Numbered from the stretch's first letter, positions 1-47,000 are shown. The stretch: DNA of 64,000 nucleotides from an uncultured Clostridia bacterium (GCA_964502145.1 CAZCVI010000002.1:117383-181382); one strand, 5' to 3'. Numbers and translations: made by a program. The notes: a model not told the origin generated them from the letters alone.

Positions 1-1
1 C

Positions 2-277
2 TTAAAACAACTGGAGAAGGCAGCAGCCGATAAAGACTTACTGCGCCAATTAGAGTTAGAGGAAATGGCCTATCGAGAATATGACAGTACAATCGGCATG
101 TTGGAGAGAAAGTTAGGCGAAAAAGAGCAAGCCTTAAACGAAAAAAATCAAGCCTTAAACGAAAAAGAGCAGGCTTTGAACGAAAAAGATCAGGAGCTCA
201 ACGAAAATAAACGTATGATTGAAGAGAAAAATCAATACATTGCAGAACTCTTAAAAAAGCTGGAAAAAGAAAAATAG
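2..277 (+). CDS. 3' end of a 5'-truncated Rpn/YhgA-like (PD-(D/E)XK, TIGR01784-type) nuclease/transposase-like paralog. The coiled-coil tail carries 3 extra ALNEKxQ heptads.
   Basis: The frame is open from the window edge. nt 1-277 are near-identical to nt 1111-1326 of the downstream gene, except for a 63-bp (3 x 21 bp) in-frame insertion. The stop codon is at 275-277. Confidence 0.5.
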   Translation, partial: LKQLEKAAADKDLLRQLELEEMAYREYDSTIGMLERKLGEKEQALNEKNQALNEKEQALNEKDQELNENKRMIEEKNQYIAELLKKLEKEK

Positions 278-387
278 TAAAAAGAGAAAGGCAGGAATGT
301 CTAATACTGGAAAAGATGCGTTTTGTTTATGCGCTTACGCCAGCTTGAAATTCAGGAATACCTGTCGCCAGGGGCACATTTTTTTCC

Positions 388-1326
388 ATGGATCATGGAA
401 AAAAGTGGATTGGTGTTGACAAGCAGCATCAATTGGATTATTATTTAGATAGGAATCAGGAGGTTCTTTACATGTTGATCGCTAACCCCATTTATGACAC
501 TGTTTTTAAATATCTGATGGACAATGCTGAAATTGCCAGAGGAATAATCGCCACCATCATCGGGGAGAACATCGTTCATTTGGATTTACAGGCCCAGGAA
601 AGCCATGTCCAAGTAGAGGGCAGGTTAACCTTTTATCATCTTGATTTTATCGCCAAGATCAAGCAAAAAAACGGGGAATATAAAACCGTGTTGATTGAAC
701 TCCAAAAATCCAGTAACCCCACTGATATTATCCGGTTCCGACGCTACCTGGGCGAGCAATATAGAAAAGAAGAGGATATCTTGGCTGAATCTGGGACCAT
801 TACGAAAGAACCTTTACCCATAATCACCATTTACATTTTAGGTTATTTCTTATCCAAGACTTTGCCCGGGGTAATCAAGGTAAACCGGGTATATAAAGAT
901 TTATTAGGTGGCCAGGAAATTTTTGAGCGGAATGAGTTTATCGAGTGTTTAACCCATGATTCTTATGTCATCCAGATTCCCAGGTTACACTTAGAGATGA
1001 AAAACCGGTTGGAATATATCCTGTCGATATTCAAACAGGAGAGATTTATAGCGGATGATCACCGTTTGAAAGATTATATCTATGAAATCGACGATGAATT
1101 GATGAAAATGATCTTAAAACAACTGGAGAAGGCAGCAGCCGATAAAGACTTACTGCGCCAATTAGAGCTAGAGGAAATGGCCTATCGAGAATATGACAGT
1201 ACAATCGGCATGTTGGAAAGAAAGTTAGGCGAAAAAGAGCAAGAGCTCAACGAAAATAAACGCACGATTGAAGAGAAAAATCAATACATTGCAGAACTCT
1301 TAAAAAAGCTGGAAAAAGAAAAATAA
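388..1326 (+). CDS. Rpn-family recombination-promoting nuclease / putative transposase (YhgA-like, PD-(D/E)XK) with a C-terminal coiled coil
   Basis: DTVFKYLMDNAEIARGII, VLIELQKSSNPTDIIRFRRY and PLPIITIYILG match, from recall, the E. coli RpnA/YhgA blocks DAVFKQFLMHPETARDFL / VLIEHQSSPDKHMAFRLMRY / LPLVVPILFYQG. The tail is K/E-rich heptads. Confidence 0.7.
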   Translation: MDHGKKWIGVDKQHQLDYYLDRNQEVLYMLIANPIYDTVFKYLMDNAEIARGIIATIIGENIVHLDLQAQESHVQVEGRLTFYHLDFIAKIKQKNGEYKTVLIELQKSSNPTDIIRFRRYLGEQYRKEEDILAESGTITKEPLPIITIYILGYFLSKTLPGVIKVNRVYKDLLGGQEIFERNEFIECLTHDSYVIQIPRLHLEMKNRLEYILSIFKQERFIADDHRLKDYIYEIDDELMKMILKQLEKAAADKDLLRQLELEEMAYREYDSTIGMLERKLGEKEQELNENKRTIEEKNQYIAELLKKLEKEK

Positions 1327-1384
1327 TAGAAAAGTTGGAAGAAATTCCTTACAACATTCTAATTATACCACTATTGAAAAAGTT

Positions 1385-5831: not shown

Positions 5832-7337
5832 TTAATACCGCACCCCTTTTTGGTATAACATCGCTTCGTAAGCAGCCATCACTTCGGCCCACTGGTCAAT
5901 AGGTATTTGGTGGGTAAATGGATTTCTTATCTCGAATACACCGGCTTCTCCCTCTTCTTTGTTAACATGAAGCAAGCTGGAGTCTGTATTTTTTAAAATA
6001 GCTTCTGCTTGCGTCTCTTGAGTCTTACGATTTTTAATCAATATCTTCTCTCCCCTTAAAACCGCGAGTGTATCATTTAAGGCACTTATTTTCAGAAAAT
6101 TGGCATGGAAAATATTCGGACCTTGGGTTATCTTATCTTGAAGTTTTGCAATTCTAAAATCTAAATCGAGATTCTTAAGTTGTTCCATCCAACCCTCTGG
6201 TTTCCCATTTATAAGATGATCCATTTTTTCTAATAGACTATATGTTTCTAAGTCCTCTTTATCGCTGGGAATATTCCCTTCTGCCAATTTTGGATAGTCA
6301 GTGGCATCAAATGCTTCTTTTAAAGTTGCTGGGAACAGACCTGCCGTTTTAGGATCAACTGTTGAGTCTTTTAAAGCACTTGTCCACAATTCTTGAATAT
6401 TGGCACGTGGTAATGCGTCGAGTATGTTTTTATCTATTATATCTTTTGTGGGGCTAAAAAAATCTTCCTGAGATCTCAAATACTTAAAGTATGAAACTCT
6501 TGGCACATTCACCAACGCCCTTATGGTTGATTTTAAGATGGATGGAAGTTCGGCTCCTAACTTTTTACTCAATATTTCCACTATATTATTATATAATTGG
6601 ATAGAGAATTGTTTGGCGTTGTCCAGGCAGGTATTGACGGTTTTTTCCTGTACTATTAGAACATGGTCTTCAAATGTAAAGCTATTGATTAAATCGAAAA
6701 TATCGAGGAAGGTTGAAGATGTCGCCTTGGTGGGGGAGACGTTTATTTGAAATGCACCTTGAGAACCTTCTTGGACTTGAAGGATTGGCCCTTGTCTATT
6801 ATTTACTTCAGCCCATTTTGCTTCTAACGCCATTAAGGGCATATCTTTTAAAAGCGATTTCCCTCTGATTTTGGCGATTTTTACAAAATCGGCCAGATAG
6901 GCGACCTGAAATGTGAGGCTCAGGGGATTCTCGGGCGGATATTGATCATGGAGCCCTGTGGCCAGTTCAAAAGTAGCATATTTTTTATTTGGAGCTTCGA
7001 GATGAATTTCTGTCTCTATTCCAGGTACGATAGCCCCTACTTTTTCGCCCTGGGATACACTAGTGCCAACATCATAATCCAATGTAGCCCCAACTACTTC
7101 TATTTCCGCCCCAATTTTTCTTTGTATTGAATTCGTTTGCTTGTTGGATAGATTCCCTTCTGTTGCTTCGGTTTCGCCGTCCAAATTTCCGGATGGCGTC
7201 ATAACCGTTTCTTCACCAAAAATAGGGGGATGGTGATTTGTTTTTTTATTATTTGCACTCTTTATCTGCTGGGCAACGGCTTCAGCAGCCGCCATACTTT
7301 TATTCTCATTCTTTGTCTTCATTGCTGCGGCATACAT
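5832..7337 (-). CDS. Hypothetical protein (501 aa) with a low-complexity N-terminus and no recognisable domain
   Basis: A long ORF with coherent codon usage. I could recognise no motifs by eye. Confidence 0.5.
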   Translation of the reverse strand: MYAAAMKTKNENKSMAAAEAVAQQIKSANNKKTNHHPPIFGEETVMTPSGNLDGETEATEGNLSNKQTNSIQRKIGAEIEVVGATLDYDVGTSVSQGEKVGAIVPGIETEIHLEAPNKKYATFELATGLHDQYPPENPLSLTFQVAYLADFVKIAKIRGKSLLKDMPLMALEAKWAEVNNRQGPILQVQEGSQGAFQINVSPTKATSSTFLDIFDLINSFTFEDHVLIVQEKTVNTCLDNAKQFSIQLYNNIVEILSKKLGAELPSILKSTIRALVNVPRVSYFKYLRSQEDFFSPTKDIIDKNILDALPRANIQELWTSALKDSTVDPKTAGLFPATLKEAFDATDYPKLAEGNIPSDKEDLETYSLLEKMDHLINGKPEGWMEQLKNLDLDFRIAKLQDKITQGPNIFHANFLKISALNDTLAVLRGEKILIKNRKTQETQAEAILKNTDSSLLHVNKEEGEAGVFEIRNPFTHQIPIDQWAEVMAAYEAMLYQKGVRY

Positions 7338-7616
7338 ATTTCTTTCCTCATTATTTCATCCATATTAATTCTAACACAAGAAATATAAAGAAACAAGGAG
7401 AATTACAGCCCTGGATTCCCCGCCAAATTTCTGGAAAGCTTCGACTTACAGAACCTTCTGGACCAACTGGACTTCCCAAAACCTTATAATTTTGTATAGC
7501 TTGTCCAGTATAAAGTATCGAATAGGCTGTTCGAGGCGCATTGTCCCTGGTTTCTTTTTCATATCCCTTTGTAGACTCCTGGTCATCCCACCATCCGACG
7601 AATCACGGTTCAGAAA

Positions 7617-7668
7617 CTGTCTCCCCCATTTTTCCAAGTAGAAAAACTGTGCCCAGTGCTTTACTTCA
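7617..7668. repeat. Left copy of a 52-bp direct repeat flanking a TA module
   Basis: ctgtctcccccatttttccaagtagaaaaactgtgCccagtgctttacttc. The same sequence with one mismatch recurs at 8408-8459. Confidence 0.8.
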
Positions 7669-7711
7669 TTTTTGATTTGACATTTTGTCGTTTATAAGCT
7701 ACCATTATACT

Positions 7712-8056
7712 ATGGCCAACACACAGAGGATTTTGAAAGTTTATATGGATTCCCGCGGTAAAGAGCCTTTTATTGAGTGGTTGGAATCGATAAAGGACCG
7801 TAAAAACAGAAGTAGGATTATTACTAGATTGGATCGTTTGGAAGTCGGTAATCCCGGTGATTCCCGCCATTTGGGTAATGGGTTGTTTGAACTACGCTTG
7901 GACTTTGGCCCCGGCTTTCGGATTTATTATGGTGAAGATGACGCGGTGATCCTAATTTTGCTGGTGGGTGGCGATAAAGGGACGCAATCCGCAGATATCA
8001 AAAAAGCCCAATCTTATTGGAAGAGGTATCAGGAGGAAAAAAATGAGAAATTTTAG
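7712..8056 (+). CDS. Type II toxin, RelE/HigB-like addiction-module killer protein (TIGR02683-like)
   Basis: MANTQRILKVYMDSRGKEPFIEWLESIKDRKNRSRIITRLDRLEVGNPGDSRHLGNGLFELRLDFGPGFRIYYGEDD is the characteristic killer-protein pattern. Its stop overlaps the antitoxin start. The upstream ATG at 7685 is less likely. Confidence 0.75.
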   Translation: MANTQRILKVYMDSRGKEPFIEWLESIKDRKNRSRIITRLDRLEVGNPGDSRHLGNGLFELRLDFGPGFRIYYGEDDAVILILLVGGDKGTQSADIKKAQSYWKRYQEEKNEKF

Positions 8057-8369
8057 AGATTATCTAAAAGATAAATTGGTCGATCAAGCAGAAGCAGTTT
8101 CTTATCTAAATGTCGCCCTGGAAGAGTATGAAAAAGATCACGATGCCGATGCTTTTTTGCTGGCACTACGTACAGTTACCGAGGCAAATGGCGGTATCTC
8201 TGAATTGGCAAAAAAAACCAATCTAAACAGGCAACACCTGTATCGGTCATTATCAAACAAAGGAAATCCCAGACTGATTACACTGGAAACAGTTTTGCAT
8301 GGACTGGGACTCCGGTTGTCTATTGTCCCTCTTGGAAACAAAAGTCTGGAGACGGAGCACAGAGTATAA
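8043..8369 (+). CDS. HTH (XRE-like) antitoxin / addiction-module antidote protein (TIGR02684-like)
   Basis: MRNFRDYLKDKLVDQAEAVSYLNVALEE...ISELAKKTNLNRQHLYRSLSNKGNPRLITLETVLHGLGLRLSIVP is the typical antidote HTH. It is translationally coupled to the toxin, with ATG at 8043 inside the toxin 3' end. Confidence 0.7.
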   Translation: MRNFRDYLKDKLVDQAEAVSYLNVALEEYEKDHDADAFLLALRTVTEANGGISELAKKTNLNRQHLYRSLSNKGNPRLITLETVLHGLGLRLSIVPLGNKSLETEHRV

Positions 8370-8407
8370 ATTTCCTGGCTGTTTCTTCCATCAAGTAGGG
8401 GCTTGAG

Positions 8408-8459
8408 CTGTCTCCCCCATTTTTCCAAGTAGAAAAACTGTGGCCAGTGCTTTACTTCT
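8408..8459. repeat. Right copy of the 52-bp direct repeat
   Basis: ctgtctcccccatttttccaagtagaaaaactgtgGccagtgctttacttc. It is followed at 8449-8498 by a perfect 15-bp inverted repeat (tttacttctttactt / aagtaaagaagtaaa). Confidence 0.8.
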
Positions 8460-8652
8460 TTACTTTATATTTGTTCAATTGCAAGAAGTAAAGAAGTAAA
8501 ACACCGTCCCCTTTTTTGGCCAAGGAATCAATAAATGGCAAATTAAAAGTGCTTCAGCGGGAACCGTATCACCTTTTTTGATCACGTTTTGGCCTTACCA
8601 ATGACATAAATTTTCATACCACCTTTCCTTTATCAAAACAGTCACGTTCACA

Positions 8653-8997
8653 CTATAATGAGAGTACTTTCTTTATGCCCTGTTCGACTTTTTTAAGATA
8701 TTTGGTACCAATTTTCCCGACGAATTCTGTCAATACCTCTTTATCAATGGTAATCAATTGGGAAACGTTTATGACTGAATCCTTTGTTAACGCGGACTCT
8801 TCTTTCTTTAAAAAAACGTTCCCAGGAGCTTCGGCCAATCTAAGATTGCTGGTTATAACCACCACCACAACTGTATTGATTTTACTCCTGTTAAAGGTAT
8901 CGGCCTGCATGACCAGCACAGGTCGTCTGTACCCGGGACCTGAACCTGAGGGTAAATCCAAATCAGCCCACCAAATGGACCCCCGCTCAATTACCAT
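8653..8997 (-). CDS. mazF: MazF/PemK-family type II toxin (endoribonuclease)
   Basis: RGSIWWADLDLPSGSGPGYRRPVLVMQADTFN...VVVVVITSN is the MazF/Kid/PemK signature. Confidence 0.75.
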   Translation of the reverse strand: MVIERGSIWWADLDLPSGSGPGYRRPVLVMQADTFNRSKINTVVVVVITSNLRLAEAPGNVFLKKEESALTKDSVINVSQLITIDKEVLTEFVGKIGTKYLKKVEQGIKKVLSL

Positions 8998-9233
8998 TCT
9001 TCTTTTTGCACTATTTTCAACTGTGCCTGATAAAGCCCTTTATCCATTACCGAGGGATTCGTTTGATCTTCATACAATGCATTTAACTGCTGTGTTACAT
9101 TTTCCTCTTTTTTATCCTTCAGATACTCTTCTATTGCCCTCGCATAAAATTCACTGCGAGTTACCTTTAATTGGTGGGCGATTTTCTCGGCCAATGCAAA
9201 TATATTATCCGGTATGTATACTGCTGTTTTCAT
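8991..9233 (-). CDS. Ribbon-helix-helix antitoxin (MazE/CopG-like)
   Basis: An 80-aa protein, MKTAVYIPDNIFALAEKIAHQLKVTRSEFYARAIEEYL, is RHH-like. It overlaps the MazF start by 7 nt and sits upstream in the same operon. Confidence 0.65.
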   Translation of the reverse strand: MKTAVYIPDNIFALAEKIAHQLKVTRSEFYARAIEEYLKDKKEENVTQQLNALYEDQTNPSVMDKGLYQAQLKIVQKEEW

Positions 9234-9449
9234 GCTTAAAGTATAATCCCAATAGAGGCGAATGTCAAATAAAAAACTTCCCCACGTACCGATGGAAATT
9301 AAGAGGTTAGTTGCGCCAAACTAAGCCCAGGAATTTGGGACATGTCAGTGATTCTCATTATTCTCGTTATTCTTTTTCCTCCCATTCTTCGCATTTTGTC
9401 CTAGGGATTTCCAAACTTTTGGTGGTTGTTCCAGGTGAAACTACAAAAC

Positions 9450-12004: not shown

Positions 12005-12082
12005 ATGCAAGTTAAAAAAAGAGTTGTCAGGCAATGGGAAAACTTTTTCCAGACGACAATTTTCTCGGGTATGTGTAAATGA
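12005..12082 (+). CDS. 25-aa small ORF (MQVKKRVVRQWENFFQTTIFSGMCK) overlapping the rSAM start (ATGA). Possible small precursor/leader-like peptide or an upstream coupling ORF.
   Basis: A GGTGA lies 6 nt upstream of the ATG. Its stop TGA overlaps the ATG of the 12079 gene. Cys is at the C-terminus. Confidence 0.25.
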   Translation: MQVKKRVVRQWENFFQTTIFSGMCK

Positions 12083-13923
12083 TCGAAGCCAACGAAGTCA
12101 AAAAGCACCTCCTTTCCGTTTTAAAAGGTGAGTCGCTCCTGCTGATTGTTCCACCTTTTGTTAATACGCGGACTCCCATCATGGGTCCTCATATCCTGCA
12201 AACCATTGCCCAACAGCAGGGTTATGCAGTAGATATTCTATATGTGAATCTTCTGCTGGCCTCACTCATTGGTACCCAGTTGGTCGAAAGCATCAGCTAC
12301 GGTCAACCTTTTCGTTTATTAGGCGAGCGTTTATTTGCCCGTAGCGCCTATGGATTACCACCATTGGGAAAATTTCCAGAACTCTGTTTGGACGCGGTGA
12401 AATCGGTGTTCGGCGATAAAGAAGAATATCCCATGGAAGCCTTTGAATACAAGTATTATGAGACAACCGATTTCCAAGCCGATACGTACCACCACCTGGA
12501 AAATATCTGCTATGATCTGGTAACAGAGATATCAGAAACCATTGCGGGTATGAATTATCAGATGGTGGGTTGTTCGAGTAACTGGGAACAAAACAATTGC
12601 TCCATCGCCTTGATCAATGCGATCAAAAAACGTCGACCCGACATTATTACCTTGATGGGCGGCTCCAACTGCGAGGGGGAAATGGCAGAAGGAATTGCTT
12701 CACTCAGCCACTCTATTGATTATATCTTTTCCGGGGAGAGCGATCTTACCTTCCCTGACTTCTTAAAAAAACATAAAGCTGGCCAATTACCCTCGAACCG
12801 GATTATCGTGGGCGAACCGGTTACTGACCTGGATAATATCCCGCTCCCCTGTTATGATAGTTATTTCCAACAATCGCGTTGTTTTTTCGGCGCTCAGCCC
12901 AGCGGAGAAAATATCCTGGCCTATGAAACCAGCCGCGGTTGCTGGTGGGGACAATGTACCTTTTGCGGGCAAAATGGCAAACGGAGCCGTTTTCGCCCCA
13001 AAGCTGCCAAGAAAGTCGCTGCTGAATTGGGTGAAATGAATCGCCAGTACCCGGATAAACGCATTCTGCTCATAGATAAAGTGATGCCCATCTCTATCTA
13101 CAACGAACTGCTCCCCTTGTTAGAGCAAAACGGAGTGACAGCACCCATGAGCTGTGAACACCGGCCAGACCTATCCTTTCAAGAACTGCTGGACTTAAAA
13201 AAAGCCAATGTGAATATCATCAAGTTCGGTATTGAAACGCTGTCCAGCGGATTATTAAAACTAATGAATAAAGGCGTGATTGCCGCGCAGAATATTTCTC
13301 TACTTCGCCATGCTGCGGCCTGCGGCGTGCTAATCGATTGGAATATGCTGTGGGGGTTCCCCAATGACAGGTTAGAACACTACCAGGAGATATTGGAACT
13401 GCTGCCTTTACTCCATCATCTCTGTCCCCCTGCGGTATTTCGTCACCTTAGTTTGGATCGCTTTTCTCCTTATTTCGAGAAGCCCCAGAAATATAATATC
13501 CGTAACCTCCGTCCCTGGGCGGTGAACGATATGGTTTACCCGGAGTGGGCAGATATGGAGAAACTAGCTTACCGCTTCATCGGCGATTATCCCAGTGACT
13601 CTCACGACCACCCAGAAATAATCGGCGCCATCTCCCGAGAAGTGGAAAACTGGCAAGCTTCCAGAAAAGATGCCAAGTTGCATCTGAAGGCTGTCGGTTA
13701 TCATTATATTCTCCAAGATACCCGGAAAATAAAAGCGGGCTGCAAACCCCAATTACTGGATGAAGAACAAGCCAGGGCCGTGATGACACCATCCGCCTAC
13801 AAGACTTCAAGCGGACAAGAATGGGCGGTGACTGAAAAACTGGGGGTAGTGGTGGATGGTTTGTACGTTCCCCTGGTGACCGCTTCCCCAGAATTATTAT
13901 TACACTTTATGGAGGAATCATGA
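12079..13923 (+). CDS. B12-binding-domain / radical SAM protein (class-B-like) with a non-canonical CX4CX2C cluster motif
   Basis: The N-terminal LLLIVPPFVNTRTPIMGPHILQTIAQQQGYAVDILYVNL ... IITLMGGSNCEGEMAEGIASL...IFSGESD reads as a B12-binding fold (GGxxxxxGE(G)E). The core SRGCWWGQCTFCGQNG is followed by TIM-barrel-like elements. Confidence 0.5.
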   Translation: MIEANEVKKHLLSVLKGESLLLIVPPFVNTRTPIMGPHILQTIAQQQGYAVDILYVNLLLASLIGTQLVESISYGQPFRLLGERLFARSAYGLPPLGKFPELCLDAVKSVFGDKEEYPMEAFEYKYYETTDFQADTYHHLENICYDLVTEISETIAGMNYQMVGCSSNWEQNNCSIALINAIKKRRPDIITLMGGSNCEGEMAEGIASLSHSIDYIFSGESDLTFPDFLKKHKAGQLPSNRIIVGEPVTDLDNIPLPCYDSYFQQSRCFFGAQPSGENILAYETSRGCWWGQCTFCGQNGKRSRFRPKAAKKVAAELGEMNRQYPDKRILLIDKVMPISIYNELLPLLEQNGVTAPMSCEHRPDLSFQELLDLKKANVNIIKFGIETLSSGLLKLMNKGVIAAQNISLLRHAAACGVLIDWNMLWGFPNDRLEHYQEILELLPLLHHLCPPAVFRHLSLDRFSPYFEKPQKYNIRNLRPWAVNDMVYPEWADMEKLAYRFIGDYPSDSHDHPEIIGAISREVENWQASRKDAKLHLKAVGYHYILQDTRKIKAGCKPQLLDEEQARAVMTPSAYKTSSGQEWAVTEKLGVVVDGLYVPLVTASPELLLHFMEES

Positions 13924-13950
13924 CTCCTCTAAAGAGCTGAAAAAACTACC

Positions 13951-16215
13951 ATGTTAGAAAATCCTATACTGAAACCCTGTTACGGTGCCGAATGTATCGA
14001 CACCGATCACGTCTTGTTAATATCGGAAAAAGACAATGTCTTATTAACCGGGAAACTTTACAACCTGGTACTGTCTGAAATTTGTGGCAGCACGCTTTCG
14101 TTGGCTGAAGTGGTGGACCGATTGCGTGGAAAACTTTCTGAAATGGAAATCTATTTAGCGCTGGAATCTCTGGAAAAGAAAGGGTACATCACTGAAGCTG
14201 CACCAGCACTACCACCAGAAACCTCTGCTTATTGGAGCAGCCAGGGGATGGAGATCAATCGGTTTCTCACGGTTTTGCAGGAAAAGACCATTACCCTTAC
14301 ATCTGTTGGTTCCCTTGCAACCGAATTATTTAGTCAGGCATTCGCTTTAACTGGCCTTAAATGCAGTGAAACCGGGGCGTTGCATGTTTATATTACCGAT
14401 GATTACCAGCGCCATCAGTTTGCCACCATCAATCAGGACGCTCTAAAAACCGGGCAGCCCTGGATGCTGGTTAAACCGGTGGGTGTGGAACTGTGGGTGG
14501 GGCCGATTTTCCTGCCAGGACAAACGGGTTGTTGGGAATGCTTGAAACAGCGCTTGGATATGAACCGTCCTGTAGATGCGTTTTACAAGACCCAGAAAAA
14601 CACCCGTCATCACCTATCTCTTCCCGCTGCTTTTTCCCCGCTTTCCTGGCAAATTGCCGCCAATATGACCGCGCTGGAGATAACCAAATGGCTTTATGCC
14701 GGGCATAATGAGCGGTTGGACGGCAAACTTATTTCTTTTGATACAGCGACCATGAACACCCAATCCCATGTACTGGTCAAACGCCCCCAATGCTCCTCCT
14801 GCGGCGAACCCGGTTATTTACGCGCAGAATCCCTTCCCATTATTCCGGTGCGACGATCGTCTTGCAGTGTGACCGCATTGGGTGGCTACCGCGAAGTAGA
14901 CCCCGAAGCTACTATTGAAAAATACCAGCATCACGTTAGCCCTATTACCGGAGTGATGCCGAAACTGGAACCGTATTACCATGTCAAAGGCACACCATTA
15001 TATAACTACTCTTCGGGTCGCAATATTGCACTGCGCAGTAAATCGTTATTCTGGTTGAACCAGCATCTCCGTAGCGGCAATGGCGGCAAAGGAAAAAATT
15101 GGACCCAGGCCAAAGTCGGGGCATTGTGCGAGGCGGTGGAACGGTATTGTTTCACCTATCACGGTGACGAACCCCATATCACCACCAGTTTAAAGAATTT
15201 AGATGGCAAGGGCATCCATCCCAATACCTGCATGAATTTTAGTGACACCCAATACCAGAATAGGGTAGAGAGTAACCGGAACTGCGGTAAATTTTATTCC
15301 ATGGTGCCTATTCCCTTTGATTCTGCCCGCGAAATGGATTGGACCGCCGTGTATTCGTTGACCCACCAGATGTTCAAGTATCTGCCCTCCTGTTTTTGTT
15401 ATGCCCAATATCCGGCTGAAGATGAATTAAATCTTTTTTCCTATCCAGACAGTAATGGGTGTGCCGCTGGGAATTCCATTGAAGAAGCCATATTACAGGG
15501 TTTTCTCGAACTCGTTGAACGAGATGCTGTGGCATTATGGTGGTACAATATGCCCCGCCGAACCGCCGTGGACCTCTCTAGTTTTAACGAACCTTATTTT
15601 TTACAATTAATAGACTATTATCAGTCATTACAACGAAGTCTTTATGTATTGGATTTAACCTCTGATTTAAACATTCCCACCTTTGGCGCTGTGTCTCATC
15701 AGCTAGATGGTGGCACACAGGATATTATTTTCGGCTTTGGTTCCCACGTGGACGCCCGGATCGCATTGGAAAGAGCACTGGTAGAATTAAACCAACTTTT
15801 ACCCATCGTTGATGGTCCCGAAGTTGATAGAGCCAAAGGGAAATATTTGACCCAGGATAATAACTTTCTCCATTGGTTAAAAACCGCGACCATGGAAAAT
15901 CAACCCTATTTAGCGCCCCAGCAAGACATCGCTCCCAAAACCGCAACGGATTACCCCCAGTTATGTGAACCCACCATCTATGATAGTCTGATGTTCTGTG
16001 TAAATACAGCAGCTCAACACGGCTTGGAAACATTGGTACTTGATTTGACCCGCCCCGACATCGGGCTTAGCGTCGTCAAGATCGTTGTGCCTGGTTTAAG
16101 GCATTTCTGGCAACGTTTGGCACCTGGACGATTGTATGATGTCCCCGTTCAGATTGGCTGGCTGGCTACCCCCCTCCATGAAGCCCAGTTAAATCCCATG
16201 CCTTTATTTATATAA
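13951..16215 (+). CDS. Fused E1-like (ThiF/MoeB-like) + YcaO cyclodehydratase (RiPP azoline/amidine-forming enzyme, PatD/TruD-like)
   Basis: The N-terminal half has CxxC...CxxC (GCWECLKQR ... PQCSSCGEPG), a typical E1-like Zn tetrathiolate. The YcaO signature is GNGGKGKNWTQAKVGALCEAVERYC (ExxER). Size (754 aa) and the two-domain order match cyanobactin/TOMM heterocyclases. Confidence 0.7.
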   Translation: MLENPILKPCYGAECIDTDHVLLISEKDNVLLTGKLYNLVLSEICGSTLSLAEVVDRLRGKLSEMEIYLALESLEKKGYITEAAPALPPETSAYWSSQGMEINRFLTVLQEKTITLTSVGSLATELFSQAFALTGLKCSETGALHVYITDDYQRHQFATINQDALKTGQPWMLVKPVGVELWVGPIFLPGQTGCWECLKQRLDMNRPVDAFYKTQKNTRHHLSLPAAFSPLSWQIAANMTALEITKWLYAGHNERLDGKLISFDTATMNTQSHVLVKRPQCSSCGEPGYLRAESLPIIPVRRSSCSVTALGGYREVDPEATIEKYQHHVSPITGVMPKLEPYYHVKGTPLYNYSSGRNIALRSKSLFWLNQHLRSGNGGKGKNWTQAKVGALCEAVERYCFTYHGDEPHITTSLKNLDGKGIHPNTCMNFSDTQYQNRVESNRNCGKFYSMVPIPFDSAREMDWTAVYSLTHQMFKYLPSCFCYAQYPAEDELNLFSYPDSNGCAAGNSIEEAILQGFLELVERDAVALWWYNMPRRTAVDLSSFNEPYFLQLIDYYQSLQRSLYVLDLTSDLNIPTFGAVSHQLDGGTQDIIFGFGSHVDARIALERALVELNQLLPIVDGPEVDRAKGKYLTQDNNFLHWLKTATMENQPYLAPQQDIAPKTATDYPQLCEPTIYDSLMFCVNTAAQHGLETLVLDLTRPDIGLSVVKIVVPGLRHFWQRLAPGRLYDVPVQIGWLATPLHEAQLNPMPLFI

Positions 16216-16322
16216 ATAAGGATCGTAGATCATGTTGTGTACTATTTTCAACGTATTATCCAATAACTTTGGCGTAACACATAAGAAAAATAAAATATAA
16301 ACCAAACAAAGGAGATTTAGCC

Positions 16323-16820
16323 ATGAAAGAGAAAAATTTTACGATTACCGAAAACACGAAACCGCAGGATGTAAAAAAAATCAGGGACATTTATACCAAT
16401 TACCTGAGAGTCATGCTCAAGTGTGCTGAAGACCAAGCTTATTTTGTAGAATTTCAGAAGAACACCCGTGATATCCTGGTCAATGAAGTAGGGATGACCA
16501 TCCCGGAAGGAGTCCCAATTGTTCTTGATGACAATGTAAGATGGGCATCACTGGTCTTAAATGCAAAAGGTGCCGATGGTAGCAATTATGTGGTAAAAGA
16601 AATGGAACTGGGTATCAAAGCCTATGAAACTTGGGCTGATGGAGAACTTGAAGCGTCTATTACCCAACTTACCCATGAAGCCTGCGTTGAAGTTGATATT
16701 AAAGCCGAATTCAAGAATTTTACACCAGCAATTCGTATCCCATTTATTGATGTAACCAAGGATTTACTGGGTGAAATTAGCTTTAATAAGAAGACTGAAA
16801 TCGTTTTAACTTGTTGCTAG
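16323..16820 (+). CDS. NHLP-type (nitrile-hydratase-leader-like) RiPP precursor, 165 aa, C-terminus ...EIVLTCC
   Basis: An AGGAGA RBS is present. ...YFVEFQKNTRDILVNEVGMTIPEGVPIVLDDNVRWASLVLN matches the NHLP consensus (...F...L..NP...L.eE.G..lPeGV.v.V.EEn.....LVLP). A Cys-Cys terminal dipeptide is present. Confidence 0.6.
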   Translation: MKEKNFTITENTKPQDVKKIRDIYTNYLRVMLKCAEDQAYFVEFQKNTRDILVNEVGMTIPEGVPIVLDDNVRWASLVLNAKGADGSNYVVKEMELGIKAYETWADGELEASITQLTHEACVEVDIKAEFKNFTPAIRIPFIDVTKDLLGEISFNKKTEIVLTCC

Positions 16821-22381: not shown

Positions 22382-22633
22382 TTATTTAATTTTTTTCCTT
22401 TCCGCATTGTTTTTTAATGCATTGGCAATAATCCATTCTTGCTTTTGTTGATTGGCATCTTCAATGGTTCGGTACTTAAAAACTCCGTGAGGAAAATTCG
22501 GAGGACAAAGACGATTGGCTAAATCCCAGAGTTTAACTACCTGTTTATAGTATTCTTCGTCGGGGTCAAAGCACCAGAGGGCTCTTTCAGCCTCTTGAAA
22601 ATCTTTAAACTTTTGAATTGCCATTTGGGTCAT
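22382..22633 (-). CDS. Small hypothetical protein (83 aa), co-operonic with a nucleotidyltransferase
   Basis: Overlaps the upstream gene end by 29 nt. No recognised motif. Confidence 0.4.
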   Translation of the reverse strand: MTQMAIQKFKDFQEAERALWCFDPDEEYYKQVVKLWDLANRLCPPNFPHGVFKYRTIEDANQQKQEWIIANALKNNAERKKIK

Positions 22634-23099
22634 CCCCCTTTTGTCTCATAAGCTCATATAAAAAGAAGGCATCCCTTTTATCTTCAGATCGAAGAGTATC
22701 TTTTTTTAGTTTGAAAAGAGTCTGCGCTGTGGCCACATTTATTGGAATTTCATCAAAAGTCATAATCTCATATTCCAGATCATCATATGTCGCAAACTCT
22801 CCTAATCTGGCCATAATATCTATATAAAACCCATCTGGAGCGCCATATCGAATTACTGAATACTGATTTAATTCCTCAAAGGTAATATCAAAGATACATT
22901 CATCTTGAAAAACGTCATCTAGTGCTTTTTGAAGCTTCTTGATATTTTCGGAATTCATTTTTACAAATATATCAATATCCTGAGTAAGACGAGGTAAACC
23001 ATGGAGAATAACTGCAAATCCTCCGATTAGGATGTAGTCCACCTTTTCTTTACCTAGAGCTTTAAGTACTTTCAAAAATTTCTCGAATAATTCTGTCAT
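22605..23099 (-). CDS. Nucleotidyltransferase-fold protein (minimal NTase, GG...DIDI motif)
   Basis: VDYILIGGFAVILHGLPRLTQDIDIFV shows the NTase hG[GS]...DxD pattern. Confidence 0.5.
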   Translation of the reverse strand: MTELFEKFLKVLKALGKEKVDYILIGGFAVILHGLPRLTQDIDIFVKMNSENIKKLQKALDDVFQDECIFDITFEELNQYSVIRYGAPDGFYIDIMARLGEFATYDDLEYEIMTFDEIPINVATAQTLFKLKKDTLRSEDKRDAFFLYELMRQKGDDPNGNSKV

Positions 23100-38070: not shown

Positions 38071-41000
38071 ATGAGTCAATTAGAAAGAAAGAAAATTGCG
38101 GATATTCTGATGTTAACGCATTTGCAAGAAGGGATTCTATTTCACTATCTGCAAGAACCCAAAAGCGCGCAGTATTTTGAACAATTAAGCCTGGAAATCT
38201 CGGGGGAGATCAATCTGGAACTATTCAAAACCGCATGGCATACGGTCATCCAAACCAATGAGATGCTGCGCACTGTATTCCGCTGGGAAAAAATGGAGAA
38301 ACCAACCCAGATTATCTTAAAAGAACATACCTGCGACATCACTTTTTACGACCTGACAGATGAAGCGACAAACAGGCAAAAATCCCGGCTGCAAGAGATT
38401 AAAGACAAGGATAAACAAACACCCTTTGACTTGCAAGAAGTGCCCATGCGAATTATGTTGTGCAAGCTAGGGACACACGATTATGAAATGATCATCAGCA
38501 ACCACCATATCATCTATGATGGCTGGAGCAACGGGATCATTCTGAAGGAATTCTTCAGGGCATACTATGGGCTAAGCGCGGGAAAACCTGCGCTCCTCCC
38601 GGACAAACCCTCTTTCAAAGAATTTATCAAATGGCTTCAAAACGAGGATAAATACGAAAAGGATAAACAAAAAGCGTTTTGGCGCGATTATCTAGCAGGT
38701 TTAGACGGTCAGACGGAATTACCGCTAAAAAACATAAAAAATAGAAAAAACACTGGCTCCAAGCAGGTAGAACACTATTCACTGGTTCTTGAACCGGAGT
38801 TAAAAGAGAGGTTGGAGGCGTTTGCCAAAACCAAGCGGTTCACTTTGGCCGGGGTGTTCTACACTGTCTGGGGGTTATTGCTACACCAGTATTGCAACAG
38901 CCAGGATGTTCTGTTTGGCACAACTGTAGCCGGTCGTTCCGCACGGATAAAAGGCATAGAAGAGATGGTGGGGCTGTTTATCAATACGATTCCATTACGA
39001 ATCCAAACGACTCCTGGTGAAAAAATGGTGGCGGTGGTCAGCGGCGTGGATCACGCGTTACAGGCCCGTGAACTTTTTGAGAATACACCGTTGTTGGATA
39101 TCAGAAATTACAGTGGCTTGTCTGGTTATGTATCGCTGTTTGATACGTTGGTAGTGATTGAGAATTATCCATTGGATAGTCGTTTACTGCCCGAAGAAAG
39201 CGGGTTGTCAGTTCATGCTTTTACTATTGCTGAAATGACCCATTATGATTTAACCGTGGGCATTGTGCTTTTTAATGAGATAGCCGTCACGTTTTCCTAT
39301 AACCCGGAATTATTCGCCCAGGAAATGATTGCCCATTTGGCCGGGCATTTTTTGTCTCTGGTACAGATGATTATAGAAAACGGCGAACAGGACATTTGCG
39401 CCATAGAAATAATCTCCCCTGAAGAAAAGCACCGCGTATTATATGAATTTAATAATACCGCCGCAGAATACCCATCAAACAAAACGATTCCCCAATTATT
39501 CATGGAACAATCCGCCCGGACCCCAGACTACATCGCCCTTATCTGGGAAAAAAGCGGGGCGTGCCATATATCCTATGCCGAATTAAATGAACTATCCAAC
39601 CGTCTGGCCTATTGGTTGCAAACAGAAGGCATTAGGCCCGATACTATCGTGGCTATAATGGTAAATCGTTCCATTGAAATGATTGTGGGCCTCATGGGTA
39701 TTTTAAAAGCCGGTGCCGCCTATTTACCGATTAACCCGGAATACCCGGCTGAACGAATTCAATTTATGCTGCAAGACAGCACCGCAAAAATCGTGCTCAC
39801 CGAACCAATCATCCAAGCAACCACTTCCCATATTCCCATTCCTCCCATAATTCCCATAATTCCCATTCCTCCCATAACTCCCAGTAATTTAGCCTATGTA
39901 ATATACACTTCCGGCACCACCGGCAAACCCAAAGGCGTTTTAGTAGAACATCAAAATGCCGTTAATGTGGTGTGCTGGTTAGGGCGAAAATATCAATTAA
40001 ACCCCGATACCCATATTATCTTGATGTCCGATTATACCTTTGATGCCAGTATTGATCAAATCTTCGGTGCCTTGTTGCATGGTGCCTCTCTTTATATCGC
40101 CAGTAAAGAGTTCATGTTGGATATGGATGCTTTACGCCATTACATCAATAAAAATCGGATCAATTTTATTAATTTTGTGCCGCTAGTGCTCAATGAATTG
40201 CTGGGCTATCGGGAGAAATTGCCCAGCTTAAACACCGTGATTTCCGGTGCAGAGCGGTTGGACGATACTATCAAAGATAATATCCTGAAGCGCGGCTATC
40301 ATTTATATAATCATTATGGTCCCACAGAAACCACGGTGGAGACACTGGTCTTCACTTGTACAGACGCTCCAGTTTACCTGGGGAAACCCATAGCCAATAC
40401 AAAAATTTATATACTTGATCAATGGGAACATATCGTTCCAATCGGCGTACCTGGAGAATTGTATATTGCCGGGGCCGGATTGGCCAGGGGGTATTTGAAC
40501 CGGTCCGATTTAACGGCGGAGAAATTCGTGGCCACACCCCATGGTGTAGAGAATGACCCTGTATCTCGAACCTATCGAACCGGGGACCTGGGGTGTTGGC
40601 TGCCCGATGGAAATATTGCGTTTCTGGGACGCATTGATCAGCAGGTTAAGATCCGGGGGTTCCGTGTTGAACTGGGAGAAATCGAAGCACAATTGCGCAC
40701 TTTCCCGGAAATAAAGCAGGTCGTGGTGAGCGCAAAAGAAGATAACCGTGGTGATAAAACGCTTTGTGCCTATATTGTATCCCGGCAGCTTTCTACAGGC
40801 CCCACTGCCCCCCTTGACCCAGCCGTGCTAACCACCTATTTAGCCGGTATCTTACCCGATTACATGATTCCCGCCTATTATGTCCAGTTGGCAGAAATTC
40901 CCCTGTTGCCCAATGGCAAAGTGGACCGCAAGAACTTGCCTGAGCCTGTTTTTATTGCCACCCAAGCATACCAGGAACCACGGCATGAACTGGATCGCAG

Positions 41001-44000
41001 ATTGCAAACGATATGGACGAGCGTTTTATTTGGAAACGTGCTTTCAGAAGATTCATCCGCACCACCACCTAAACCCATCGGGATTGATGATAATTTCTTT
41101 CATATGGGCGGACACTCCCTGAAGATCATGAATATGGCAGCTAAAATTCACAAGGAGTTGAACCTGGAAATACCAGTGCAAGAACTATTCACCCATCCCA
41201 CTATCCGGGTTTTGGCCAATTATATAAACACGCGGGAACACACTAAAAATATCACTAAAAATAACTTTGCAGAGATCGCCGCTATTGAAGTAAAAGAATA
41301 CTATCCACTCTCTTCGGCCCAGAAAAGAGTTTATATTTTATACCTCATGGAAACCGATAGCATCAATTACAACATGCACGAGGTATTCCGCCTGGAAGGG
41401 GAACTGGACGTGGGCCGCTTGGAAAAAAGCTTTACCCAATTGATTCGCAGACACGAAAGCTTAAGAACTTCCTTTTTCTTACTCCATGATGAACCGGTCC
41501 AGAAGATTGTGGCCGCCAGTGATGTACCATTCGCCAGCGAATTTTTTGATCCAAACGAAAAAGACACCCTGGTCGAACCTGCCCTAAACGACACCGCGTT
41601 AATGGAAAATACCACTGTTTATGACATCAACCAGCGTTTTTTAAGACCCTTTGATTTGACTCAAGCGCCCCTGTTCCGCGTCGGGCTTATTAAAATCGCC
41701 AAGAACAGCCATATCTTGATGGCAGGAATGCACCATATTATTTCCGATGGCATATCAATTGACCTATTTATCACTGATTTTGTCGCCCTCTACCGTGGCC
41801 AGAACTTACCCCCCTTGCCCATTCAATACAAAGAGTATGCCCACTGGCAGCACCAGAAAAAAGCGCAGGGCGCCTTTAATAGCCAACGCTCCTACTGGTT
41901 GCATGAATTTGCCGGTGAGCTTCCCGTATTAACCATGCCCTATGATTTCCCCAGGCCAGCCGTGCAGAGTTTTGCCGGCGACAAATATTATTTTAACCTC
42001 CCCGCATACGAAACCAAAACGTTAATAAAACGGTGCCAGGAAGAAGCGGTGACTCTTTTTATGATGCTCAGCGCTATCTATTATGTGATGCTGTGGAAAC
42101 TGAGCGGTGCCGAAGAGATCGTGGTGGGAAGCCCCACGGCTGGACGCAGACACGCTGATCTGGAATCCATTTTAGGAATGTTTGTCAACACCCTGGCAGT
42201 AAAAACCAGCCCTGCCAAGGAAACACGCTTCAAACCCTTTTTGGCACAAGTCAAACAAAAGAACCTGGCAGCTTTTGAAAACCAGGAGTACCAATTTGAT
42301 GATCTGGTGGAGGAACTATTACCCGCACGGGATTTAGGTCGCAACCCGTTATTCGACATGATGTTCATCTTGCAAAATATGACCGGCACAACTAACACGG
42401 CGATAAATATTCCGGGCTTAAAAATAACCCGCCTTCCTTTTGAAACGCATATCGCGCCTTTTGATTTTTACCTCATGGCTGAAGAACGACAGGAGTCTAT
42501 CTATTTTACCGTGGGTTATTGCACCAAATTGTTTACGCTGGAAACCGTGCGTCGGTTCATGGGGTATTACCGAGAAATTCTGGCCACAGTGGTCACCCAA
42601 CCCGAGGTGGAACTGGCACGTATAGACATATTATCCCCGGCAGAGAAACGCCAATTAGTGCAGGAATTTAATAATACCCAACGACCGTACCCACAGGGTC
42701 AAACCATTCCGCAATGGTTTGCAGAGCAGGCCGCACGAACCCCAGAAGCCATTGCCGTGGTAGGGGAGGGGGTCATCACCTATCGGGAATTAAATCAACG
42801 GGCCAATCAATTGGCCCACCTGTTGCGACAAAAAGGAGTGGCCCCAGATACCATTGTTGCCCTCTTTATGTTTCGTTCTATCCAGATGGTTGTTGGTATC
42901 CTCGGCATATTAAAAGCGGGCGGCGCTTATTTGCCGATCAACCCCGTGTATCCTGGGCAACGTGTGTTGTCTATCCTGGAAGATAGCGGTGGCAATTATT
43001 TTATAAGCGATGAAAAAACATCCCGCCCTCTTTCTTTTACCGGTTTACAGCGTTTGGATGTGCCCGAAGTGACGCCCCTGGTTACAGCCAAACGACCCCA
43101 GATCACAAATTTTGATAGCTTGCCCCATCCCGATCGTACATTGATTGATTACAGCAAATATCATCGTTATATTGGTATTGCACCCGCCAAATACACCGTC
43201 AGTATCCAGGCCACTCGCGGCTGCCCGTATCAATGTGCCTACTGCCATAAAATATGGCCCAAAACACATGTCATGCGGCGGGCTGAAGATATATTCGCCG
43301 AGATTAGCGCCTGCTATCAGGCGGGGGTGAAACGATTTGTATTTATCGACGATGTCTTCAACCTCAATAAAAAGAACAGCGGCCAATTATTTCAAACCCT
43401 GATCGACCACCACTATGATGTGCAGCTCTTTTTTCCCAACGGGTTACGCGGCGATATCCTGACCCCCGATTTTATTGACCTCATGATTGAAGCAGGCACT
43501 GTTAATATTGATCTGGCCCTGGAAACGGCCTCGCCCCGCTTGCAGAAACTGATCAATAAACAATTGAACCTGGAAAAATTCGCGGCCAACGTCCATTATA
43601 TCACCCAGAAACATCCCCATGTCGTGTTGGAGATGGAGATGATGATTGGCTTTCCCACGGAAACGGAAGCGGAAGCTTTACAAACCCTGGAATTATTGCA
43701 GAGTTTTAAATGGGTCCATTTCCCCAACCTGAATATCCTCAAAATTTATCCCAATACTGACATGGCCCAACTGGCAATTGAAAACGGGGTCAGTCGTAAA
43801 TTGATTCATTCCTCCACCACCCTTGCATTCCATGAGTTGCCAGAAACACTCCCTTTTTCAAAAGATTTTGTCCGGGAGTATCAGGCACGCTTTACCAACC
43901 AGTATTTTCTTTCCCAGGAACGGTTGCGCCATGTATTAAAACAGCAGGTCAAGAGCTTCACCGCCGATGAGCTCGTGCAAAAGTACGACAGTTATTTACC

Positions 44001-47000
44001 CGTGGAGATCAAGTCTTTTGCCGATATTCTCAAGTGTGCTGACATCTCCAGCGCTGCATTGGGGCCCATTGAATTTATTCCCGAAGCCCGCTTTGCCGCT
44101 CCCGATTTTAACCAGCGGATCAAGGCTTTTTTCCCCTCCCGCCCCAGCTCGGAAAATGCTTTTCGTCTCTTGTTTCTTGACCTGTCGCAATCCTTTCGCG
44201 CCGATATGGGCCATACCCTTTACGATGTCGGAGCCGAACCCTTGGGGTTGATGTATCTCGCCTCCTATCTCCAAGAACAACTCGGCCCACACGTTCGGGT
44301 CAAAGTGTTGAAGTCGCGCATTGATTTTGATAGTTATGCCCAATTGCAAGAACAGATCACGTTGTTCCAGCCCCATTTAATTGGTCTGCGCACCCTATCC
44401 TTGTACAAGGATTTTTTTCATCGCACTGTTTCCCTGTTGCGGCAATGGGGCATTACCGCGCCTATTATTGCTGGTGGACCCTATGCCACCAGCGATTACA
44501 AACAAATGCTCCAGGACCCACACATCCATCTCGCCGTGCTGGGAGAAGGAGAAGCCACTACCCTCCATCTGGTTAAAGAGATGATGACCAAAAACAATAC
44601 CTGGCCCGCCGACGACGTATTGGAAACCATTCCCGGTCTCGCCTTTATTCGCCAATCAGAGCGAATGTTAACCACCGCCCCCCAGCGGCAGGTGCTCTTG
44701 TTGGACCAGATTTCTGGTCCATTGGCCCACTTTCCCACCACCAATCCCCAGAACGTCAATCACCCCGGTGATTTGCTATATTTGATCTCCACTTCCGGGT
44801 CTACCGGGAAACCCAAGAGCGTGATGGTCGAGCATCGCACCCTGGTTAATTTGCTGCATTTTCAATTCCATCATACAGCCATCCATTTTTCCCGTGTCTT
44901 GCAATTTGCCGCCATCGGGTTTGATGTCTCCGTGCAAGAGATTTTTTCTGCCTTACTCGCCGGTGGCACTTTATATCTTCCTGACGAAGATATGAAAAGC
45001 GATGTGCCCCGGTTGTTCCAGTTTATCCAGCAGAACCAGATCGAAATTCTGTTTCTGCCTCCTGCATTTTTGAATTTTGTTTTTTCTGACCCCGACTATA
45101 TCCCATTATTTCCCGACTGTGTGCGCCATATTATAGCTGCTGGCGAACAATTGATCGTGAACGAGGCGTTACGATTGTTCCTGAAGCAGCGGCACGTGTA
45201 TCTCCATAATCATTATGGCCCCTCTGAGACCCATGTTGTCACCACCTTGACCATGGATCCCACCCAGGAAATCCCCCATTTCCCCGGTATTGGCAGCCCC
45301 GTATCCAACACCGGCATTTATATCTTGGATAGCCAAAGCAATCTTTTGCCCCTGGGTGTTAGCGGCGAATTAAACATTGGCGGTATCCAGGTCGGGCGTG
45401 GTTATTTGGGTAATGTGGCGTTGACTGCCGAGAAGTTTGTGCCGAATCCCTTTGTCCCCGGTGATCGCTTGTATCGCACCGGTGATATGGCCCGATGGTG
45501 GTCAAATGGGAGTATTCAGTTCTTGGGACGCTTGGATTTCCAGATCAAAATCAGGGGTTTTCGTATTGAACCCGGTGAAATCGAGGGACAATTAAAAAAA
45601 CACCCGGATATTAAAGAAACAATTGTCCTGGCTCTGGCAGATAATAAGGGCGAGCTCTATCTGGTGGCTTATGTAGTGTTACAGCCGCAGACTACCATGC
45701 CCCTCTTACGGGAATTTTTATTGAACCGATTGCCGGATTATATGGTTCCCGCCCATTTTATCCCTCTGGCACGAATTCCCTTGAACGCCAGCGGGAAAGT
45801 CGACCGTCATGCGTTACCACCACCGGAAAATACACCGGGAAACGGGCATGTAGCACCACGGGACCCCATGGAAAAAAAATTGGCCGCTATCTGGTGTACC
45901 GTGTTGGGGAAAGATGTTGCCCAAGATACAGTCAGTATTGATGATAATTTTTTTCAAATGGGTGGGCACTCCTTAAAAGCCACCGCCCTCACCTCCAGGC
46001 TAGCCAAAGAGTTTCATGTTAAAGTGCCCCTCGTGGAGATTTTTAAAGAGCCCACCATCCGGGGCCTTTCCGGTTATATTGCCCATTCTATGGTGGAGCA
46101 ATACGCTGGCATAACTCCTGTAGAAGAGCAGGAATACTACCCCTTATCGTCAGCGCAGAAACGATTGCACTTTTTACAACAAATGGATAAAGCGGGAACC
46201 ACCTATCATCTGACTAGTAACTGGCTGTTGGAAGGTGTTGTCGCTAAAAACCACCTGGAACAATCGCTGCTAAAACTGCTACAACGCCATGAGAGTTTAC
46301 GCACTTCCTTTGATATCATAGCCGAAGAACCCGTGCAAATCATCCACCCGAAATTAGCATTTGTTATTGAAGATGAACATGCTACCATGGATTCTTTCCT
46401 GCGTCCATTTGCATTATCACATGCCCCGTTGCTGCGCGTCGGATTGGTAAAAATAGCAGCCGAAAAGTTTCTCTTACTCGTGGATATGCATCATATTATT
46501 TCCGATGGGTTGTCCATGGATATTCTGAGCCGTGAATTCACCGCTCTTTTGGCAGGCGTAGAACTCCCCCCATTACGTCTCCAATACAAGGATTATGCCG
46601 CGTGGCAGAGTTCTGAAAAAGAGAGCCCCCACTTCCGTCAACAAGAATTATTTTGGCAGCAAGAGTTTAGCGGCGCCATACCCGTGCTCGATTTGCCCGT
46701 TGATTATAGCAGACCACCCGTTCAAAGTTTCGCCGGGGCATCACTTCCTTTTGCCCTATCTCGTGATAGCGTTGTTTCCTTGCAAGCCATAGCAGTAGAA
46801 GCCAGTGCCACAATGTACATGGTGCTGCTCACATGTTATACTATCTTTTTAGCTAAAATGAGCAACCAGGAAGATATTGTCATTGGCACACCCATTGCCG
46901 GTCGCAGGCATGCAGACCTGGAGAAAATTATCGGGATGTTTGTCAACACATTGGTGTTGCGGAACTATCCGGTAGCGGAGAAAAAATTCAGCGATTTCCT

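Follow-up and report, generated by a model that had tools for sequence, protein, structure and literature searches.

Within a 64,000-nucleotide stretch of DNA from an uncultured Clostridia bacterium (GCA_964502145.1 CAZCVI010000002.1:117383-181382; hereafter the window, with positions counted from its first letter), a HigB/RelE-like toxin-antitoxin (TA) pair is enclosed by two near-identical direct repeats, here termed R, whose spacing is 791 bp. We propose, as a reading whose chances we consider evenly poised, that this locus arose by the Campbell-style insertion of a circular molecule made up of one R and the TA cassette, with no recombinase of its own, and that its two repeats still recombine. 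The proposal draws on the structure of R, on the recurrence of the TA unit with closely similar ends in other sequence contexts, and on a contig from a sister sample in which the cassette closes upon itself as a 791-bp form with a single R.

The repeat is 51 nt long (CTGTCTCCCCCATTTTTCCAAGTAGAAAAACTGTG[C/G]CCAGTGCTTTACTTC), and its two copies are identical at 50 of 51 positions, the sole internal mismatch lying at repeat position 36. Immediately past its end, position 52 is unlike (A/T) and positions 53-54 are alike again, giving an alternative count of 54 nt with two mismatches; the first-pass annotation of the window had recognized the repeat correctly, though it assigned it 52 bp with one mismatch. 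The elements that concern R itself are the following:

7617-7667, plus strand: left copy of R (attL-like), with C at position 36 (7652) and no hairpin partner arm
8408-8458, plus strand: right copy of R (attR-like), with G at position 36 (8443), paired in the extended stem of a hairpin
7626-7649 and again 8417-8440, unstranded: dyad CCATTTTTC-CAAGTA-GAAAAACTG inside R, at repeat positions 10-33
7446-7637 and 8138-8428, minus strand: open reading frames (ORFs) beginning MEKWGRQ, the second antisense to the antitoxin gene

That R is a genuine direct repeat, well beyond chance, is evident from its 35-nt exact part, which occurs twice in the window and in none of 100 dinucleotide-preserving shuffles. 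Similarity ends sharply on both sides with no gapped extension, the flanks of the two copies being unrelated. A Logan contig (L007; SRR7760392, k=31) stops at window position 8413, 5 nt into the right copy, as expected for a two-copy 35-nt exact repeat, and thus lends independent support to the repeat structure. The dyad within R has a perfect 6-bp stem, a 6-nt centre, and arms matching at 7/9 positions. Tyrosine-recombinase core sites have the general layout of two inverted arms around a 6-nt centre, and we take the dyad, as a lead, to be a candidate crossover core; it lies in the 35-nt segment where a crossover producing the closed form described below would have to fall. The MEKWGRQ frames, which had been ascribed to the repeat itself, do share only repeat-encoded residues and are without a Pfam match.

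The annotation had also called for a search for further copies of the 52-mer, and this recovers neither a third copy, even a diverged one, in the 64-kb window (blastn-short, nhmmer) nor a true match in the public collections searched, which apparently do not hold the host, of which about 66 kb of sequence was searched. In these collections a 24-mer from R has no match in 185,579 species genomes, and a 21-mer has four matches in JGI metagenomes, all of them chance matches with unrelated flanks and apparently inside coding sequence. The R pattern is likewise without a match in IMG/VR viral contigs, as is R in a blastn search against plasmids.

Enclosed by the two copies, as first described for 7712-8369, are a toxin gene and an antitoxin gene, which together with their promoter form a compact unit:

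7668-8337, plus strand: conserved TA core unit, comprising a T-tract, promoter/operator, toxin, and antitoxin up to the stop usual in the family
7677-7705, plus strand: sigma-70-like promoter (TTGACA at 7677-7682, a 17-nt spacer, and TACCAT at 7700-7705)
7712-8056, plus strand: toxin of 114 aa, RelE/ParE superfamily, HigB-like (TIGR02683 upstrm_HI1419; Pfam Gp49, PF05973)
8043-8369, plus strand: antitoxin of 108 aa, helix-turn-helix (HTH) type (TIGR02684/PF21716 dnstrm_HI1420)
8338-8407, plus strand: lineage-specific tail of 70 nt, present only in this cassette and joined straight to R in the closed 791-bp form

The toxin scores 114.1 bits against TIGR02683 (cut-off 62.85) and 27.9 against Pfam Gp49 (cut-off 23.9), and the antitoxin 55.3 bits against TIGR02684 (cut-off 53.7) and 51.2 against PF21716 (cut-off 27). 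The toxin gene comes first, with the antitoxin directly downstream and a 14-nt gene overlap. Judged by sequence, the pair is a HigB/RelE-type module of the HI1419/HI1420 family, as it had been labelled, and both proteins are ordinary members of this large TA family: the window toxin retains all 16 of the 16 invariant columns in a 22-sequence alignment, and the toxin-family profile gives weak matches to the solved HigB structures 6AF3 and 7NBU (E about 0.02), with a direct sequence search of solved structures giving no match. No relatives of the toxin were found in viral contigs. The promoter belongs to a strongly conserved promoter/operator stretch (TTGACA...TGTCG-TTATAAGCTAC-AT) and overlaps TGTCG-TTATAAGCTAC, a partly palindromic element predicted to be the probable antitoxin operator; the -35 hexamer TTGACA had been correctly spotted after the left repeat but placed at 7672.

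The TA core unit recurs in five other sequence contexts, in contigs traced from the closest toxin homologues, at 73-90% nucleotide identity to the window:

L008-L012: 85%
L013: 84.5%
L014: 90%
L023/L024: 73%
L025: 73.6%

In all five, homology to the window begins at 7665-7669, never more than 3 nt from where the left R ends, and stops at 8333-8338, and their upstream flanks are all unlike that of the window. The shared unit starts at the T-tract, 9 nt upstream of the -35 hexamer, and ends at the stop codon used by most relatives. As the left copy ends at 7667, where this homology starts, it is placed exactly at a recombination junction; were R randomly placed in the 374-nt intergenic region, its abutting the end of the unit would be a coincidence of about 1-2% by a rough estimate. 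These comparisons show the TA unit to be discrete and horizontally spread, which lends real support to the reading as an acquired cassette. At the other end, the usual antitoxin stop is lost in the window, and the protein reads on for 9 residues, its last 10 codons falling in the 70-nt tail, which matches nothing else. A separate observation concerns the junction of the left flank with R: an exact 14-mer (CGGTTCAGAAACTG) at window 7606-7619 is also found 17-31 nt past the antitoxin stop in L023/L024, in the 3' flank of a cassette 73% identical to that of the window, with marginal significance (score 28 versus a shuffle maximum of 23-26).

The closed form emerged from the toxin sequence cluster, which includes a protein (P0227) from the European Nucleotide Archive assembly ERZ27262924, a sister sample of ERZ27262925 and ERZ27262927, where the linear locus is found with 99.99-100% identity (L002, L003). 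Its source is the 932-nt MEGAHIT contig k141_369090 of ERZ27262924 (L026), a circular permutation of the locus in which positions 1-358 correspond to window 8104-8461 and positions 305-932 to window 7617-8244. The first and last 141 nt of this contig are identical, and it closes to a cycle of 791 bp, equal to the spacing of the repeats; we take such a terminal overlap, equal to the largest k, to be MEGAHIT's way of writing a closed loop. The cycle is 100% identical to window 7617-8407 circularized, thus comprising one R plus the cassette, and contains a tail-R-promoter junction that is absent from the linear locus, with 105 of its 141-mers missing from the window. Its single R carries C36, the base of the left copy. 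The presence of C36 in the cycle and of G36 on the hairpin side is the pattern expected if the crossover fell in the first 35 nt, with C being the base of the element and G that of the chromosome. Look-ups returned no contigs of ERZ27262924 with the exact MazF or the 501-aa protein encoded in the flanks, though the cassette was assembled there, which suggests that the cassette outnumbers its flanks in that sample. An artefact would need both flank branches to be pruned or missing, with a chance of less than 0.2% under even coverage by a rough estimate. We consider it moderately probable that the tail-R-promoter junction is physically real; it could be that of an excised circle, a tandem-amplification junction, or a loop that the assembler closed wrongly.

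The two copies of R differ in their surroundings. The right one is embedded in a long hairpin adjoining a second TA module:

8434-8517, unstranded: long hairpin with 32-nt arms (8434-8465/8486-8517), 81% complementary
8653-9268, minus strand: mazEF-like module, with a MazF/PemK toxin at 8653-8997, an 80-aa antitoxin at 8991-9233, and a promoter at 9268-9240

The core of the hairpin consists of perfect 15-bp arms at 8451-8465/8486-8500 (the perfect inverted repeat had been noted earlier, albeit at 8449-8463 and 8484-8498), and its left arm includes the final 25 nt of the right R. As RNA it folds with -34.8 kcal/mol on the plus strand (z -3.7) and -39.3 kcal/mol on the minus strand (z -3.3), and as DNA with a z-score of -4.0; the only Rfam matches are sub-threshold, miRNA-like ones on this hairpin. 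An A-tract and a T-tract flank it on opposite sides, and it is situated between the convergent higBA (plus) and mazEF-like (minus) operons, the latter with a near-consensus promoter (TTGACA, a 17-nt spacer, and TATACT). It is hence likely to be a bidirectional intrinsic terminator shared by higBA and mazEF. Since the hairpin's right arm is not part of R, the right copy and its right flank belong together, and this copy is in its native chromosomal context. Consistent with this, G36 of the right copy matches the opposing arm of the hairpin, whereas C36 of the left copy would not, and no hairpin partner arm was found for the latter. The hairpin and the right R lie in the 3' region of the mazEF-like module, and we considered whether they might belong with it to one mobile unit; the window has nothing but coding DNA in common with the closest mazEF relatives (77% nucleotide identity), so that the hairpin and R do not move together with mazEF. 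The region is TA-rich, with a further PIN-domain (VapC-like) pair about 9 kb further left (contig L001).

In the scenario that we propose, the cassette would consist of 740 bp (the promoter/operator, the higB-like toxin, the HTH antitoxin, and the 70-nt tail) plus one 51-nt R. A circular molecule of this composition would have recombined in a Campbell-type event with a chromosomal R, the one at the left shoulder of the terminator hairpin that follows mazEF, leaving R on both sides as attL-like and attR-like copies, with C36 contributed by the element and G36 by the chromosome. The two copies may still recombine, yielding the closed 791-bp single-R unit as an excised circle or a tandem-amplification junction. 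The crossover would lie left of repeat position 36, possibly at the dyad, and candidates for the enzyme are a trans-acting site-specific recombinase or RecA acting on the 35 bp of perfect identity; the direction of events is likewise inferred. To this extent, the earlier suggestion of an acquired cassette with att-like sites gains real support from the discrete TA unit, its left end at R, the failure of R to appear as a common sequence in the searches, and the closed 791-bp contig. A bolder version, in which TA minicircles of about 0.8 kb form a non-integron cassette system that shuttles in and out of terminator hairpins via an unlinked or host recombinase at the R dyad, with the excised or amplified form being abundant enough to yield a contig of its own, appears doubtful to us.

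A number of observations weigh against the insertion of a circle with still-active repeats. An empty site could not be found via the flanking genes, nor did a close relative of the host locus turn up: every contig encoding the exact MazF protein either carries the cassette or breaks at R, and the 501-aa neighbour has no relative in species-genome contigs, its best homologues being 46-53% identical, with the one that was examined not being syntenic. No recombinase, integrase, or transposase was detected by Pfam among the window ORFs of at least 110 aa at 1-38 kb; the DNA beyond 38 kb, outside that scan, was read as nonribosomal peptide synthetase/polyketide synthase (NRPS/PKS) from its repeat pattern. 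The attC box pair R''(RYYYAAC)/R'(GTTRRRY) was not found in 7300-8700, the junction region shows no folding advantage over shuffled sequences (z -0.6, -0.7), and R contains no dif-like 28-bp site (XerC arm, 6 nt, and a TTATGTTAAAT-like XerD arm), the regular-expression scan, which allowed one mismatch, giving a single unrelated match inside the toxin gene. The closed form is known from one short contig, and at k ≤36 every k-mer of the cycle is also present in the linear locus; since MEGAHIT's iterations feed contigs built at small k into the rounds at larger k, a loop could conceivably have been closed early and then retained. Moreover, a 791-bp circle without a replication function would not by itself explain a true over-representation of the cassette in ERZ27262924, should there be one, and as the boundary of the unit is also a functional promoter edge, part of its sharpness could reflect selection rather than a mechanistic end. 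Finally, flanking direct repeats are absent in three of the five other contexts (L013, L023/24, and L025), with the left flank of L014 being too short to judge; bracketing repeats are therefore not general in this TA lineage. In favour of the proposal, the related cassette of L008, which is from a different genome and has a toxin 82% identical to that of the window, is also enclosed by direct repeats, here of an unrelated 29-mer that has three copies:

L008 9337-9365, 9806-9834, and 10762-10790, and the same in L009-L011: 29-mer AGCGGAAGGGGACAGGCAGAAAAATTCCT

One of the two intervals between these copies (440 nt) holds no TA genes, and the flanks of the copies are not conserved; the arrangement could have grown by accretion at a site of recombination, or the 29-mer could belong to a local repeat family.

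These difficulties have to be set beside those of the other explanations. The locus might be a one-off insertion scar, in which a TA fragment was captured at a break by the hairpin and fill-in of staggered ends duplicated 51 nt, the repeats being passive thereafter and the 791-bp cycle being an assembler artefact, a rare by-product of RecA, or a tandem duplication with no role in mobility. Palindromes are fragile, and the insert indeed adjoins a long hairpin; likewise, neither a recombinase gene in the scanned ORFs nor a known site motif was found, most related cassettes are without flanking repeats, and at k ≤36 the linear locus supplies every k-mer of the cycle. We nevertheless consider the scar unlikely, as the cycle contig closes perfectly at k=141 with 105 junction-specific 141-mers, chance coverage drop-outs would hardly account for the flank genes not being returned from ERZ27262924 (the same rough estimate of below 0.2%), and we know of no precedent in bacteria for a fill-in duplication of 51 bp. 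Should the closed form prove to be an artefact, the locus would still be a clean TA insertion scar in a terminator, although of modest interest. It is quite unlikely, in our estimate, that R is a dispersed lineage-specific intergenic repeat or terminator module of the repetitive extragenic palindrome or bacterial interspersed mosaic element kind, with the TA pair caught between two copies by chance or through recombination hot spots. The L008 29-mer, occurring three times around a related cassette with one interval free of TA genes, offers a parallel for this, the right R does belong to a terminator-like hairpin, and only about 66 kb of the host has been searched; however, there are just two copies in 64 kb, 791 bp apart, the 24-mer is absent from the 185,579 species genomes and the 21-mer has but the four chance JGI matches with none in IMG/VR, the left copy with no hairpin partner would be an incomplete module, and why R should adjoin the TA unit so exactly at its end is left unexplained. 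As to the first-pass idea of R as a terminator module, only the right copy takes part in a terminator-like hairpin, the left one having no partner arm.

The copies could also be cis elements that insulate or regulate the operon, either as looping sites or as upstream and downstream terminators, kept identical by selection or gene conversion. R contains a dyad, 9 nt separate its left copy from the -35 hexamer downstream, and the tail and the first part of the right copy jointly provide a weak terminator-like site (8398-8414) followed by a T-run. Yet none of the five related contexts has an R-like upstream sequence, despite the high conservation of the promoter/operator from 7668 on, R alone and the junction region fold no better than shuffles (z -0.6 to -2.1), and near-identity over 51 nt with sharp ends looks like duplication rather than convergence, making a regulatory role of this type very unlikely. 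The related notion that the repeats are operator modules of a TA array is not supported, as the conserved promoter/operator lies inside the unit and there is no array in the window. That the locus is a known cassette or transposable element, be it an integron cassette with attC, a Xer/dif module, a miniature inverted-repeat transposable element (MITE), or a transposon with a target-site duplication, appears extremely improbable and has largely been refuted by the tests of motifs and structure. In its favour, chromosomal integrons commonly hold TA cassettes that have promoters of their own, TA pairs are frequent in dif modules, and a closed single-site form exists here. Against this, there is no R''/R' pair, no significant single-strand fold of the junction region, no dif-like 11-6-11 site in or near R, and no IntI or transposase in the scanned ORFs; IntI, attI, and a cassette array are all wanting in the window, the integrase having been sought by the above Pfam scan. 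The unit ends are without terminal inverted repeats, no pair at these positions appearing in the list of inverted repeats, and 51 bp is too long for a target-site duplication, which in such elements would measure 2-15 bp, and far longer than any known to us, so that the suggestion of a MITE-like passenger finds support on neither count.

Further features of the window and of the relatives stand apart from these questions. A motif, AAAGTTTTGGGAA(A/G)TCCAG, recurs with at most 2-3 mismatches in the intergenic DNA of unrelated contigs:

window 7467-7485
L008 9576-9594
L009 12810-12828
L023 3327-3345
L025 4669-4687

It usually precedes a gene of the same orientation by 110-400 nt. The chance expectation is estimated at about 0.002, and the motif is probably a lineage-specific promoter, regulatory, or small-RNA motif, which would imply that the window, L008, L009, L023, and L025 come from related organisms. 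The other features are:

window 1-1332: segments of 100-147 nt that are nearly identical and spaced 1.05-1.11 kb apart, together with tandem units of 21 nt (TTAAACGAAAAAGAGCAAGCC-like), resembling repetitive coding sequence cut off by the start of the window
window 12079-16820: a radical-SAM protein together with a 165-aa ORF and a fusion of a YcaO cyclodehydratase with a winged-helix domain, possibly a modification cluster of the ribosomally synthesized and post-translationally modified peptide type
window 22605-23099, minus strand: a 164-aa ORF matching AbiEii/DUF6036 nucleotidyltransferase toxins, which may be a type IV TA or abortive-infection component
window 38071-64000: a 6272-aa ORF (38071-56889) and the following internally repeated modules, with what look like NRPS/PKS adenylation, carrier, and ketosynthase motifs
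L025 4794-5672, minus strand: a reverse-transcriptase (RVT_1) gene directly downstream of the related TA cassette, in a region with NACHT, TIR, and LRR genes that looks like a defence-island context

As a TA module, the locus resembles the HI1419/HI1420 HigBA system in its family scores, toxin-first order, 14-nt overlap, and promoter over an operator-like stretch, differing in the 9-residue lineage-specific C-terminal extension of the antitoxin encoded by the cassette tail. What is unusual is the packaging: a promoter-to-terminator TA unit of less than 1 kb that has long att-like repeats and a candidate closed form but does not bring its own recombinase; a literature search found no description of such a cassette. 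By analogy, it would work most like a cis-mobilizable element (CIME) or an integron cassette, though it fails the integron tests and no decayed parent element is visible. A CIME is an integrated element that keeps attL and attR but has lost its integrase and transfer genes (PMC5704250). The likeness lies in the direct att-like repeats flanking the cassette, the absence of a recombinase of its own as far as found, and the apparent single-site closed form; on the other hand, the cassette is only 791 bp with no sign of a decayed integrative and conjugative or integrative and mobilizable element, no cognate integrase was found in the scanned ORFs, and its target is an intergenic terminator hairpin rather than the 3' end of a tRNA or protein gene. 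With integron cassettes it shares the one-operon format under 1 kb, a TA pair with its own promoter, a possible non-replicating single-site circle, and a presumed dependence on a recombinase encoded elsewhere; it departs from them in that R has neither R''/L''-L'/R' boxes nor a significant single-strand fold, with no IntI, attI, or array in the window. Xer-dependent modules, such as the integrative mobile elements exploiting Xer and the Acinetobacter pdif modules, which often carry TA pairs, are similarly small, recombinase-less, and bounded by short sites at which host enzymes move them; here, in contrast, there is no dif-like 11-6-11 site, the sites measure 51 nt and point in the same direction, and the locus is an intergenic one on the chromosome. 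Duplication-amplification by unequal crossing-over would likewise produce the tail-R-promoter junction and, in an assembly graph, an identical cycle, but it leaves unexplained why repeats should bracket a foreign unit exactly at its end, and there is no obvious selection for TA amplification. TA modules are known to spread horizontally, with the physical vehicle rarely seen outside integrons, transposons, and plasmids. In the present locus the sequence shows, with single-nucleotide precision, where the moving unit begins and ends, and a candidate closed form and a candidate recombination site are in hand, so that the question of how TA pairs on their own pass from one chromosome to another can be put to a direct test.

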